The notes below the pieces were generated by a model. The model searched no databases, was not told the DNA's origin, and saw only the letters and a program-made list of their open reading frames with translations. This document shows, in pieces, positions 1-49,583 of a DNA stretch of 64,000 nt (its first letter is position 1; each line of letters begins with the position of its first letter). The DNA is from a bacterium (GTDB lineage: Bacteria > Patescibacteriota > Minisyncoccia > Phycocordibacterales > UBA12088): assembly GCA_003252295.1 (NCBI GenBank), contig QKEV01000002.1:196-64195 (forward strand). The letters run 5' to 3'. The translations under genes were made by a program, and so were the position numbers.

Positions 1-1347
1 TGCAGTTCTTTTTTTTCGACCTCTTTTCGATCTTTTGAATTATCAACATCAATCACAATTGCAATTTTCTTTTTTAAGCCGATAGCAATTTCAGTGAATC
101 TCTTGTATGTGTTATTCACAGAAATAACCTCTATTTTGTTCATGATGGGCAGTACACCATATTTATCTTTGTATGCCCTTTGAATTACAAGTTCATCAGC
201 ATCACCCTCAACCAATATGGCTTTTTCGCACAGTAAAATCCTCAAAGTATCATATCCAGGAAGTTTTTTGAAAAATTCTTCCGTACTTTTGTCAAGGTCA
301 TTAAAAACCACAGGGTTACCGCTTTCAGATAATAATTTTAAATTATGTAAGCCTAATTTATTGGCAACAAAACTATTATGTGAGGTGATAATTACTTGTT
401 TATGTTTTAGATTCTTTTCCACCTCAGATAATAAATGCAACAAGTTTGTATGCGATAAGTGATTTTCCGGTTCTTCTAGGAGAATTACTTTTGATTCACC
501 TGCTTTATTACTACTTATTGCTACATCAGTTTTCATCAAAGACTGTCGACCTTTCCCAACATGCTCAAAAGGTATTTCTTTGAAATACACTGAGAGGTGA
601 GAGTCCCAAGAATTTTTTGAAGAAGGATCTATCGAAGCGGTTGTGTCTTCATCAAGAATTTTACTCGAAATAAGATCGTGTATTTCATTATCTTTATATG
701 AATCTTTGATACTTCTGAAAAAACGTTTAGCTTTCAATTTTTCACCTGTTTCAAGGTCATTTTTTATTATCCTTGCAATAATGGAATTGGATACATTAAT
801 ATTACTTGACGCAGCATCAATTAACAGTGATTTAATTGGTATTTGAGTTCTTAGAATTTCTTCTCCTGAAAATAGGGTCAAACTTATTTTATAGTACTCT
901 AATGGCAACGAATCGATAAGCTCTCGACTTTTATTTAACATCTCATCATAAGACTCTCTTAAAAACTCGTTAAATGAAATTTGGTAACATATTCCCTTAT
1001 GCTTCTCAGAAGTGTAATTCTCATATCCTTCATATTGCTCAGGGAGTTCTAAATTTTCTGGAAAAAATAGTTCGATACGGATTGCAGGAGGGTCAATATT
1101 TTGCTCATCCTTAATTAGGGCAAGGTATTTTTTGACTTCTTCTTGATTAAAGAGAAAAGGATTAAGCCTTTCTTCTGTTAGAAACTGGTTGTCTAAGTAT
1201 CCAGTAAGTACAAGATTAAATGCCTCGACAACGGTGCTCTTTTTAGATTCGTTGTCTCCAACCAAAATGTTTATCTTCTCATTAAGAGTTAGATTATACT
1301 CTTTATATCCTTTGTAGTTTTCGATATGAATCTTTTCTATATACATA
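1..1347 (-). CDS. OLD-family ATP-dependent endonuclease (ABC-type ATPase + TOPRIM; GajA-like), C-terminus beyond window start
   Basis: My own reverse-strand translation from ATG at 1347: MYIEKIHIENYKGYKEYNLTLNEKINILVGDNESKKSTVVEAF... (Walker A GxNxxxKS), later VILLEEPENHLSHTNL (OLD-type Walker B EEPExHL), then AILVEGDADELVIQRAY and IAIVIDVDNSKD (TOPRIM-like E and DxD). No stop before position 1, so ORF-track absent because truncated. Confidence 0.6.
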
Positions 1348-1394
1348 TATTTCTAGACTACTCTAAAAAGGTCTGTATGCAAAACAAGGTCATT

Positions 1395-2324
1395 TTAAGT
1401 ACAGAAGCCAACACCAAGGGCAAATGGTGTACAGTGTAGGATTCGCACCTCACCCAAATCCTCAATAGACTTTACTTGTAGTAAAGAAGCACATGTTTTG
1501 TGACCAGAAAAAGAACTTGTAATTGAGGTTGTACCAAACATATTCCTTGTATTCACTTGATACTGGACTTCAAGCTTATTCTTGAAAGTTCGAACATCTA
1601 TCTCAGTGTTCATTTGGTCTTCATGAGACTTTTTAAAGTATTGGGCTTTATTTATGAAAATATATGTTCCAGGAGAAATCATTTGTTTAACAAAAGTCCG
1701 ATTCCAATAGTCTTCATTCATGTAAAGTATTTTATTATTCAGTACAAAAAAATCCACAAGATCACTATAAAAAACATGCAGTGCAATTCTCTGCTCATAA
1801 TCATAGTAATCATAAACCGTGTTTCTCACATATGAATCAGCAGGTCTAAAGTTTTCTGGCTTGATTAAAATTCCGTTACCATCTATCACACCTGAGAAGA
1901 CTAGGCGATGAAAGAGATTGGGATTCGACCTAGTTATAAAGTCTTTCGGTGTAGATTGAATTAAACGAGCATGATTAATGTAACCCCATGTCGCACTTAT
2001 ACCAAAAGAATCTTTATACTCGGAAGTACTACGTGATGTTGATGCGTTGTGTCTGTTTGTTTCAACTGTTTTGTACCATTCCTTTCTAAAAGTCTTTAAT
2101 TGCTGAGGGGTTAGATTTTTTGATAATTCTCTTTTTGTATGAGCCTCATCGTGATGTTTCTGGCACAGAAGAACGAGATTATCAAAATCATTGTTAGAAT
2201 TATTCTTATCTATATGATGTATATGGTCACCTTTACTTGAACAAACAACACAAGAAAAGGCACTACAATACATGATTTCAGACTGAACTTTTTGTGGTAA
2301 TGCTAAACGTTTGGCCATAAACAC
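1395..2324 (-). CDS. HNH endonuclease domain protein (N-terminal HNH, ~240 aa C-terminal domain of unknown function)
   Basis: CSAFSCVVCSSKGDHIHHIDKNNSNNDFDNLVLLCQKHHDEAH = CxxC...HH...N...CxxHH HNH motif; 47 bp upstream of OLD-like gene on same strand. Confidence 0.7.
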   Translation of the reverse strand: MFMAKRLALPQKVQSEIMYCSAFSCVVCSSKGDHIHHIDKNNSNNDFDNLVLLCQKHHDEAHTKRELSKNLTPQQLKTFRKEWYKTVETNRHNASTSRSTSEYKDSFGISATWGYINHARLIQSTPKDFITRSNPNLFHRLVFSGVIDGNGILIKPENFRPADSYVRNTVYDYYDYEQRIALHVFYSDLVDFFVLNNKILYMNEDYWNRTFVKQMISPGTYIFINKAQYFKKSHEDQMNTEIDVRTFKNKLEVQYQVNTRNMFGTTSITSSFSGHKTCASLLQVKSIEDLGEVRILHCTPFALGVGFCT

Positions 2325-2362
2325 ATAGATTTTATCATGTATAAAATCACTGAAAAGCGTAC

Positions 2363-2392
2363 AAAAAACAGCCTCTTTTGAGGCTGTTTTTT
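2363..2392. terminator. bidirectional rho-independent terminator hairpin between tRNA-Glu and HNH gene
   Basis: aaaaaacagcctc-tttt-gaggctgtttttt perfect stem flanked by A/T runs. Confidence 0.6.
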
Positions 2393-2418
2393 GTACGCTT
2401 CTCGTGCGCGCTGTTATT

Positions 2419-2492
2419 GGTGACCCTACCGGGAATCGAACCCGGGTTTCGACCGTGAGAGGGTCGCGTCCTAGCCGCTAGACGATAGGGCC
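2419..2492 (-). tRNA. tRNA-Glu(CUC)
   Basis: Reverse complement GGCCCTATCGTCTAGCGGCTAGGACGCGACCCTCTCACGGTCG...GGTTCGATTCCCGGTAGGGTCACCA folds as cloverleaf, anticodon loop CTCTCAC, encoded CCA. Confidence 0.8.
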
Positions 2493-2643: not shown

Positions 2644-2952
2644 ATGCATCAAATACAGCAGAGAAAGTACCCAGTATGCCTTGTTTACTACACAGATTAT
2701 GATCAGTACGTCATTGCATTATTCGGACTCAAAGATGCAACGACCAAAAGAACCAAAAACACTAAGAAGCGGATGAGGGTAATTCACCTAGAATTTAATG
2801 ACGCTTTAGGTAAAAAATTTTTTTCTGAAGAAGAAGCTGTTGCATACATAGGAAAAATGCCTGCGTATATTTTTCTAAATTTTGTCTATGTAAAAGACAG
2901 CAGTGACAACTCATTCCCAGAAATAAAGTTCCCGTTCTTCAACCTCTTTTAG
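2644..2952 (+). CDS. hypothetical protein; N-terminal domain paralogous to that of 3098..3811
   Basis: RKYPVCLVYYTDYDQYVIALFG vs IRFPVCIIYYTDLKQYGLAIY; RBS ggagga upstream. Confidence 0.5.
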   Translation: MHQIQQRKYPVCLVYYTDYDQYVIALFGLKDATTKRTKNTKKRMRVIHLEFNDALGKKFFSEEEAVAYIGKMPAYIFLNFVYVKDSSDNSFPEIKFPFFNLF

Positions 2953-3097: not shown

Positions 3098-3811
3098 ATG
3101 GAACCAAAACAAATACGGTTTCCCGTTTGCATCATTTACTACACCGACCTGAAGCAGTACGGACTTGCAATCTACTCACCAGAAAAAGTACCGGGGAACT
3201 TCACATCCAAAAGTAAAAAAGTACGGTTTACCGTATCTGAAGTACTACCGGTTCTATTTCCAACTGAAAGCGCAGTACTACTACACGCTACAGCAGAGGA
3301 AAACCAAGATCGGTACATACTTCTCAAACCGGTACAACATGTTGATTCGAGGGATAAGATGACCTCTTTCCCAGCAGTACAACACTCGGTTGCCGGTCTC
3401 TTTGAACTTCCACCACCAAAAATCACAATCCTCGTAGTACACACAAAATTTACCGAAGAGAAGGTTGTGGAAAAACTAGAGGAGGTGTATGGAGAGAGAG
3501 CCACCGTCTACACCAGTAGCAACATTCCAGATGATGTAAAAATAGACTTGTTTTTTCTCAGCGGAAAGAAGGTCTTGGACTACGAATGCAGTGCACATGC
3601 ATGTAAACTCATCAGAGGCTCAAAAAAAGCAAAAGTGATTGCCTTTTCAACGGTTGACATGTACCTGGAGGACCTCATTAAGAGAGCAAACTATTTCGGT
3701 GTTGATTTCATACTCGAAAAAAAACCACTCATAGCGCCTATGGTAAACAAGGAAAAGTATCAAGAGTTTCTGCTTCTACTCGAGACAATCCTCGCCTCGG
3801 TCAAGAAATAG
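3098..3811 (+). CDS. hypothetical protein with C-terminal receiver-like (pseudo-REC) fold lacking the phospho-acceptor Asp
   Basis: ILVVHTK...IDLFFLSGKK...AKVIAFST...FILEKKP resembles CheY-like beta1/beta3/beta4/beta5 signatures, but acceptor position is Ser. Confidence 0.5.
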   Translation: MEPKQIRFPVCIIYYTDLKQYGLAIYSPEKVPGNFTSKSKKVRFTVSEVLPVLFPTESAVLLHATAEENQDRYILLKPVQHVDSRDKMTSFPAVQHSVAGLFELPPPKITILVVHTKFTEEKVVEKLEEVYGERATVYTSSNIPDDVKIDLFFLSGKKVLDYECSAHACKLIRGSKKAKVIAFSTVDMYLEDLIKRANYFGVDFILEKKPLIAPMVNKEKYQEFLLLLETILASVKK

Positions 3812-49058: not shown

Positions 49059-49192
49059 CTATTATTCTCCTTTGGAAAAAGACTGAAAACTACATTCATT
49101 ACCTTCCTATATTATACCATATTTAATATATTTGTCCAGTTTTATATAGTAGAAAAAGACTCGCTTTTACACGAGTCTTTTTCATATTTTTT

Positions 49193-49583
49193 CCTATATC
49201 TATAAGCCGGATTCTGTATCCCCCACCACTTTTGTTCGTGTACGAACAAAAGTGGTGGGGGACGATAGTTATTTACCTAGCTTTACAGTTACCTGTAAAG
49301 TCATGCGGCACTCCCCCCACCACTTTTACACGATATTCGTGTAAAAGTGGTGGGAGGCACGACCTTGCACGCAGGTAAGGATTTTGCCGTTTCACTCGCC
49401 ACGTTACCGTAGTGATTCATCCACTATGTGGATGTCTTTCCCTTTCGGTCTAGACGTCACTGCTCGCACCTCTATGCTTACACACGACGGGTGTTACCCG
49501 CTACCCTGCTCCCAAAAAATGGGGCGTGTCCGGACTTTCCTCACTGTATATAAAATACACAGCGCAACTATCCGATATAGACT
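49193..49583 (-). ncRNA. rnpB: RNase P RNA (bacterial type A)
   Basis: Minus strand carries GGAAAGTCCGGAC (P4 5' strand), CAGGGTAGCGGGTAACACCCG (cf. CAGGGUGCCAGGUAACGCCUGG), 3' ACAGAATCCGGCTTAT (P4 3' strand) and P1 pairing TCTATATC/GATATAGG; two near-identical long hairpins cccaccacttttgttcg...cgaacaaaagtggtggg. Confidence 0.75.

Follow-up and report, generated by a model that had tools for sequence, protein, structure and literature searches.

The first 2,492 nucleotides of a 64,000-nt stretch of bacterial DNA (contig QKEV01000002.1, positions 196 to 64,195; the whole stretch is called the window here) carry a tRNA-Glu gene, a gene for an HNH-family nuclease and the beginning of a gene for an ABC-ATPase/TOPRIM protein, which we assign to gajA of the anti-phage system Gabija. 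All three genes are located on the minus strand of the window. A first-pass annotation of the same DNA had read the two protein genes as a candidate defence pair, an HNH protein together with an OLD-TOPRIM protein, that belongs to no described system. The features of the region are as follows.

2492..2418, minus strand: tRNA-Glu gene (anticodon CTC), from ARAGORN and Rfam (tRNA, 59.7 bits).
2348..2406, minus strand: long hairpin with a stem of ~27 bp, just inside the inserted element, from RNA folding (−43.1 kcal/mol, z = −10.8).
2318..1395, minus strand: HNH-family nuclease gene, 307 aa, from the open reading frame (ORF) and homologue alignment; GTG 2324 is an alternative start (309 aa).
1395..2347, minus strand: indel of ~950 nt, composed of the HNH ORF and a 30-nt leader, boundaries ±15 nt, from a four-way alignment and blastn.
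1347..1394, minus strand: spacer of 48 nt upstream of gajA, from alignment.
1346..<1, minus strand: gajA, first 448 of ~542 codons, cut by the window edge, from translation, Pfam and PADLOC.

The truncated gene was described in the first-pass annotation as coding for an OLD/GajA-like protein running past the edge, and the motifs quoted there are readily found in its translation. These are Walker A (GDNESKKS, aa 30–37), Walker B (LLEEPENHLS, aa 289–298) and the TOPRIM motifs AILVEGDADE (aa 376–385) and DVD (aa 433–435). As in Gabija, the ATPase also contains the signature and H-loop motifs, and its C-terminal TOPRIM domain has the conserved Glu and the DxD. Pfam confirms this organisation with matches to AAA_15, SMC_N and AAA_21 and to OLD-like_TOPRIM (PF20469) at aa 372–435; the ABC ATPase extends from aa 1 to ~345 and the TOPRIM domain begins at ~aa 372 (window 3–233). 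The top PADLOC matches were GajA models. PDLC00102 matched the fragment with 453 bits (E = 2.2e-136), in agreement with the anti-phage role that had been proposed, and covered model positions 1–444 of 532, so that ~90 residues of GajA are missing past the edge. No specific NCBIfam model was found for the protein. The catalytic and Walker motifs are invariant in an alignment of 24 GajA relatives. Two relatives are each 84% identical to the protein of the window: GajA of L039 (full length 542 aa; identity over 442 residues) and P0124 of L138 (543 aa). Here and below, L-numbers are labels of fetched contigs or loci that were compared with the window and P-numbers are those of proteins. By its motifs and profile matches, the OLD-like gene is gajA, coding for the Class 2 OLD-family nuclease of Gabija.

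The sequence past the edge could be approached through relatives. A homologue of the HNH protein with 70% identity (P0002/P0241) is present on contigs of ~5.2–6.1 kb from many samples (59 index blocks), and twelve contigs carrying the same element were fetched (L039, L040, L122–L131). Window 1–2492 aligns with these at 75% nucleotide identity. In 11 of the 12, the HNH gene (307 aa) is followed after 48 nt by the genes for GajA (542 aa) and GajB (395 aa) and by a serine recombinase gene on the opposite strand; the remaining contig, L040, stops inside gajA. The complete GajA of these contigs matches PDLC00102 end to end (E = 1e-158). GajB is a UvrD-like protein recognised by the GajB model PDLC00148 (E = 4e-112), its gene overlapping gajA by 4 nt, and the large serine recombinase shows Resolvase, Recombinase and Zn_ribbon_recom domains and matches the PHROG integrase family (E = 9e-58). 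The size of the element in these relatives is ~5.3 kb. The gajB gene is also directly downstream of gajA in L138 (GajA 84% identical), L135 (76%), L132 (64%) and L136 (62%), and every relative within this range of 84% down to 62% identity that reaches more than ~130 nt past gajA has gajB directly next to it. Judging from the same element elsewhere, gajA of the window genome would most likely be followed by gajB and the recombinase gene just past the edge.

The association was then followed in more distant relatives. Using a profile of the 24 GajA relatives, 80 metagenome loci with 35–44% identity were collected. A GajB relative was present in 77 of these and its gene abuts gajA in 76 of the 77, with a median projected offset of −9 nt; two of the three loci without GajB have no downstream sequence. 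Conversely, tblastn with 30 members of the HNH family and a profile HMM detected an HNH-family gene in none of the 80 loci, 60 of which include at least 1 kb of upstream sequence. A reverse test used 38 genomic HNH-family loci from Alpha-, Beta- and Gammaproteobacteria, Acidobacteria, Bacteroidota, Firmicutes and others, each with flanks of 10 kb or as much as its contig offered. Searches with the GajA fragment and the GajA profile revealed a GajA/OLD-like gene within 10 kb in none of the 38. Co-occurrence of the two families, proposed as a check in the first-pass annotation, is thus not seen from either side in these surveys. On these comparisons GajA–GajB is a conserved unit and the HNH protein is not part of Gabija. 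Two GajA loci are unusual: L064:6001–13635 contains a GajA relative without detectable GajB in 6 kb downstream, and in L079:7629–9763 ~2.1 kb is inserted between gajA and gajB.

The pair proposed in the first-pass annotation could be read as a novel two-gene system of HNH and OLD-TOPRIM proteins without a helicase, similar to an inverted Septu. The window indeed shows these two genes only, and PtuA profiles match the P-loop region of the ATPase (E = 5e-13). Septu (PtuA and PtuB) resembles the locus in that an ABC/SMC-like ATPase and an HNH nuclease are encoded by neighbouring genes. However, the PtuA models, with 47 bits as compared to 453 for GajA, reach aa 1–81 only, i.e. the first 60–80 residues of an ATPase that here is joined to a TOPRIM domain. 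PtuB models gave no match to the HNH protein at E ≤ 0.1, the gene order (HNH, then ATPase) is reversed, and the pairing of the two families is not conserved outside one sub-lineage. With gajB directly following in every sufficiently long relative, we regard such a system as highly improbable; the statement that the locus is not Septu, also made in the first-pass annotation, stands. The novelty claimed for the pair was lost at the profile search, which calls the protein GajA and annotates the locus as Gabija, and gajB follows in the closest relatives while sister elements have no HNH gene (see below). The apparent two-gene pair most likely arises because the window edge cuts off gajB and an optional gene happens to be the neighbour. 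A corrective value lies in this: two genes at the end of the window, first taken for a novel defence pair of HNH and OLD type, are most likely those of a Gabija system cut before its helicase gene and of an optional neighbour.

Two further candidates were rejected. For PARIS, the AriA model matches the ATPase part only (E = 1e-13), the TOPRIM domain is fused to the ATPase in one chain and none of the neighbours is AriB-like. For a Class 1 OLD protein (stand-alone, P2 Old type), the PADLOC Old model matches aa 1–50 only (E = 1e-11) and all close relatives have a helicase gene behind it.

The HNH gene is present in some copies of the element and absent from others. In L138, whose GajA is as close to that of the window as the HNH-bearing L039 type, there is no HNH gene, and the post-tRNA hairpin is followed ~50 nt on by the gajA start codon. 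L135, whose GajA and GajB share ~76% and 71% identity with those of L039, shows the order tRNA-Glu(TTC), same hairpin, gajA, gajB, again without an HNH gene. In the four-way alignment this appears as a clean indel of ~950 nt, which the window and L039/L122–L131 have and L138 and L135 lack; it is bounded by the hairpin on one side and, on the other, by a TTGCA(A/T) motif that precedes gajA by ~40 nt. A blastn comparison of L135 with the window likewise skipped window 1368–2363. As the sister elements keep gajA and gajB without it, the HNH gene is facultative cargo and Gabija is maintained in its absence. The spacer between the two genes, given as 47 bp in the first-pass annotation, measures 48 nt (1347–1394). 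In the window it retains TTGCAT-16 nt-TAGTCT, and L138, which has no HNH gene, has TTGCAA-16 nt-TAATAT directly upstream of gajA. By eye, the motif and spacer resemble a −35/−10 pair and gajA may keep its own promoter; a promoter scan gave no support for this. The same scan, which overall performed no better than chance, placed a promoter-like site before the HNH gene (2356..2329).

The left boundary of the inserted element is the 3′ end of the tRNA gene (TCACCA). In L124–L130 the DNA homology to the window reaches as far as the 5′ end of a tRNA-Glu(CTC) gene. L122, L039 and L123 have a different, non-tRNA flank that is joined at the position equivalent to the terminal TCACCA of the tRNA. Since the tRNA- and non-tRNA-flanked copies part exactly at the tRNA 3′ end, the pattern is that expected of site-specific integration there, and it supports the tRNA integration site suspected in the first-pass annotation. 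The GC content is 32–35% in region 1–2300 vs 45–48% in the adjoining chromosome, the low value being consistent with acquired DNA. A right-hand attachment (att) site or junction was not found in the contigs of the related element, all of which end in shared sequence, and no terminal direct repeats indicative of a circular form were seen among the 12 contigs.

The hairpin at 2348–2406 is kept in all related elements, including L124, L122, L135 and L138. Its arms co-vary in alignments read by eye, with GCGTA/TACGC in the window as opposed to GCACA/TGTGC in L135. It probably serves as a terminator or insulator behind the tRNA gene, but could instead be a recombination-related site. The two left flanks of the ~5.3-kb element and their common joining point can be seen by comparing L122:1–890 with L124:1–145 and window 2418–2492. 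The last 26 nt of the non-tRNA flank in L122 weakly resemble a tRNA T-arm and acceptor end, and this flank may be an alternative attachment site or an attP-type junction.

We consider it very likely that window 1–2492 represents the left-hand end of a mobile defence element of small size that has integrated at the 3′ end of tRNA-Glu, with Gabija as its core cargo and the HNH gene as a separate, facultative one. In this model, gajA, which codes for the Class 2 OLD-family ABC-ATPase/TOPRIM nuclease, would be followed, with a 4-nt overlap, by gajB for a short UvrD-like helicase. The divergent large serine recombinase would presumably integrate and excise the element at tRNA-Glu, and the HNH cassette would have entered behind the post-tRNA hairpin, ahead of the region that precedes gajA. 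According to published work on characterised Gabija, GajA is an endonuclease that nicks DNA; its activity is strongly inhibited by ATP and held off at normal nucleotide levels. GajA and GajB form a 4:4 complex that is needed for defence, and this complex cleaves DNA during phage infection (review PMC10568477; PMC8136825, PMC10781630, PMC10822852). By analogy, GajA and GajB of the present element may act in the same way, i.e. through a 4:4 complex, nucleotide-restrained nicking and DNA cleavage on infection. The HNH nuclease is predicted to act independently, possibly with a nucleic-acid-binding C-terminal region, and not as a Gabija subunit; its role would most likely be that of a stand-alone restriction-like defence nuclease or of a selfish free-standing (homing-type) endonuclease.

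Compared with the characterised Gabija, the proteins belong to a short subfamily (GajA ~542 aa, GajB ~395 aa; PDLC00102/PDLC00148) that appears to be remote from its B. cereus counterparts. The carrier, a small tRNA-Glu/serine-recombinase element whose host is Patescibacteria-like, is also different, and some copies have the extra upstream HNH gene. A compact ~5.3-kb element of this kind, with a tRNA-Glu site and a serine recombinase, carrying Gabija apparently in such a host, is mildly new, as is the uncharacterised HNH family found on some of its copies.

Some observations weigh against this interpretation. The gajB and recombinase genes lie outside the window, and we infer their presence in this genome from relatives; the biochemical activities are predictions. 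The database protein identical to the HNH protein (P0001) is on a single contig of 64,423 nt, so that the source contig appears to exceed the window by at most ~423 nt. The mechanism is transferred across a large distance: BcGajA (B. cereus VD045, PDB 8SM3) was not recovered at E ≤ 0.001 by PDB sequence searches with either the fragment or the 24-sequence GajA profile, while these same searches recovered the C-terminal region of a Xanthomonas Class 2 OLD protein (6njv, E = 2.6e-5) and the Class 1 TsOLD (6p74). The subfamily would thus be remote from the GajA that has been studied. Furthermore, the HNH gene and gajA are on the same strand 48 nt apart and this linkage is kept in two lineages at 75% nucleotide identity, so that the two may be co-transcribed or may cooperate functionally in this sub-lineage.

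The last point can be extended to a Gabija variant with three components, the HNH protein having been recruited in this sub-lineage as a co-expressed partner of GajA/GajB, either as second effector or as backup nuclease. Strand and spacing are indeed preserved between the window and L039/L122–L131 in spite of 25% nucleotide divergence, and both proteins are under purifying selection (70% amino acid identity for HNH and 84% for GajA vs 75% at the nucleotide level). HNH effectors are also known to pair with ABC-type ATPases in Septu. However, the HNH–gajA association goes back to a single evolutionary event, L138 (GajA 84%) and L135 (~76%) keep gajA and gajB without the HNH gene, and the pairing recurs in none of the GajA or HNH-family loci surveyed above. 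Moreover, behind the HNH insertion the sequence that precedes gajA is still in place. The literature searched gave no Gabija system with an HNH protein or with three genes. A three-component system is therefore improbable, although we rate it above a helicase-free two-gene system. The close copies that differ only by the HNH cassette provide a natural plus/minus comparison for the contribution of the HNH protein to defence.

The HNH protein itself carries the HNH motif noted in the first-pass annotation, here CxxC...HIHHID...NNSNN..DNL..LC..HHDEAH. The length of 309 aa given there probably has to be revised, as the alignment with 100 homologues supports ATG 2318 (307 aa, MAKR...) over GTG 2324. 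In these 100 sequences C23, C26, H34, H35, C52, H56 and H60 are invariant and N43, N47 and H55 are conserved to at least 90%. Another 13 invariant positions lie past the HNH motif (W81 onward), among them W111, N115 and R118 of a WGYINHxR motif. The protein is composed of a zinc-finger HNH domain (aa ~17–65), a helical linker and a conserved C-terminal region with an alpha/beta and a beta-barrel part. Matches to known families are limited to HNH residues ~17–65: the Pfam HNH model scores 18.7 bits, below its gathering cut-off of 21.4, PADLOC HNH matches are weak, PHROG HNH families match more clearly (E = 5e-9) and the best sequence match among solved structures is the HNH domain of IscB (E = 5e-4). 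No family of Pfam, PADLOC, NCBIfam or PHROG accounts for the C-terminal 240 residues.

A single-chain AlphaFold model based on the 100-sequence alignment was of high confidence (predicted local distance difference test, pLDDT, 93.9; predicted template modelling score, pTM, 0.90). Foldseek found no full-length analogue of this model in the PDB. The HNH part resembles the nuclease domain of Cap5 from the cyclic-oligonucleotide-based anti-phage signalling system (CBASS) with probability 1.0 over ~110 columns. Cap5 and IscB, the best structural and the best sequence match to the HNH core, share with the protein only the HNH region of ~60–100 residues; the protein lacks SAVED, RuvC and guide-RNA-related parts, and CBASS genes are absent from its neighbourhood. 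Partial matches over ~85–150 columns were obtained with oligonucleotide/oligosaccharide-binding (OB) folds, namely the RecJ OB domain (E = 6e-4), the anticodon-binding domains of Asp/Lys-tRNA synthetases, RPA-related and YgiW-like proteins. These are weak (template modelling score ~0.2 on the query) and were placed on the C-terminal five-strand beta region from secondary structure alone. In the model, the OB-like C-terminus is a hint of nucleic-acid binding. From its conserved residues, the protein is predicted to be an active HNH nuclease.

A large protein collection contained 131 full-length homologues, and a profile search gave 145 family clusters (50% identity) at E ≤ 1e-30, many of them with 360–400 aa. 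Distant members (P0400–P0506; L012–L020, including those from Bacteroidota, L013–L014 and L018–L020) have an N-terminal extension of ~55 aa that is absent from the protein of the window. When the neighbours of HNH-family genes in 24 loci were clustered all-against-all, only UvrB recurred, in four alphaproteobacterial loci that are related to each other. When 113 neighbours were scanned with PADLOC and Pfam, most proved to be housekeeping genes and no recurrent defence partner emerged. Few are of another kind: one Type I restriction-modification locus, single AbiEi, MADS, Mu-like prophage, ArdA and HipA genes, and two integrases. PbeA and mREase_IV, which appeared as recurrent neighbours with counts of four, were rejected as most likely cross-matches of UvrB-type helicases. 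The HNH gene directly follows an intact uvrB in L005:7812–10969, L007:7792–10936 and L021:7769–10576, with a 4-nt overlap in L005 and a 1-nt gap in L007; in L011:7771–10816 the HNH gene is partial and a 234-aa uvrB-related ORF lies ~1.5 kb upstream. This looks less like a mobile context than like a stable linkage with a DNA-repair gene, possibly with translational coupling. Overall, the family is uncharacterised and its members are scattered orphan genes.

These features invite comparison with free-standing HNH homing endonucleases and single-protein HNH restriction enzymes (Type IV HNH). All combine a zinc-finger HNH core containing all catalytic residues with a larger non-catalytic domain, and all are encoded by a single gene with no conserved partner and with ORF-sized insertion polymorphism. 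The difference is in the C-terminal 240 residues, for which there is a weak OB-fold resemblance only. The HNH gene might consequently have no defence role at all and be a selfish free-standing endonuclease of the homing type, either the element's own or hitch-hiking on it, which would be compatible with the Gabija assignment. Its presence/absence polymorphism is of ORF size with clean boundaries at an intergenic site, the gene is found singly and scattered between unrelated housekeeping genes in many phyla, the catalytic HNH motif is intact and is accompanied by a large conserved domain that could recognise DNA, and PADLOC homing-endonuclease models match weakly (E = 2e-4). On the other hand, no intron or intein context was seen. 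The strong conservation of the C-terminal domain, with its 13 invariant residues past the HNH motif, is unusual for homing enzymes with diverse targets. The position after uvrB in four alphaproteobacterial loci, abutting or overlapping in three, looks like stable vertical inheritance. The gene is also rare in plasmids, where two distant matches (24%) from Bradyrhizobium were found, and among the phage protein structures of BFVD only the HNH core found matches, none of them full-length. We therefore treat a purely selfish gene as a possibility to be kept in mind but not the one to be expected.

Equally tentative is a more inclusive proposal, in which the HNH proteins would form an undescribed family of autonomous nucleases moving as an ORF-sized cassette, acting either as single-gene anti-phage restriction-like enzymes or as chromosomal homing-type selfish genes, and may complement Gabija in this element. 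With ~145 clusters at 50% identity, a confident fold and an unannotated C-terminal domain, the family poses a minor question of its own and is a possible target for studies of single-gene defence or homing.

The chromosomal genes flanking the element are housekeeping genes, namely those for a HAD hydrolase, a Mur ligase (MurF-like), a penicillin-binding protein, MraW/RsmH, RelA/SpoT and ParB. A similar setting occurs in L132:1–12547 (also L133), where a gene pair for GajA and GajB, 64% and 63% identical to those of L039, is located between an N6_N4 DNA methyltransferase gene and a ResIII/RE_endonuc gene. A Mur ligase gene, whose product is 40% identical to that of the window, and a tRNA-Glu(CTC) gene lie ~5 kb upstream of this pair. 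The neighbourhood, being of the same kind as that of the window, suggests a recurrent defence hotspot.

Beyond the tRNA gene, two adjacent ORFs on the plus strand (window 2644–2952 and 3098–3811; 102 and 237 aa) are without a Pfam match but have a common N-terminal motif, (Y/F)PVC(L/I)(V/I)YYTD, in a stretch of lower local GC content (35–42%). Elsewhere in the 64 kb, an RNase P RNA of bacterial class A (125 bits) is encoded at 49187–49583 on the minus strand and ten single tRNA genes are dispersed. The best named relatives of the RelA/SpoT protein, at 56–59% identity, are from metagenome-assembled genomes of Pacebacteria, Kaiserbacteria and Patescibacteria, and the host is probably a member of the Patescibacteria/CPR. 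The RNase P RNA, the ten tRNAs and these relatives fit a small genome of the Patescibacteria type.

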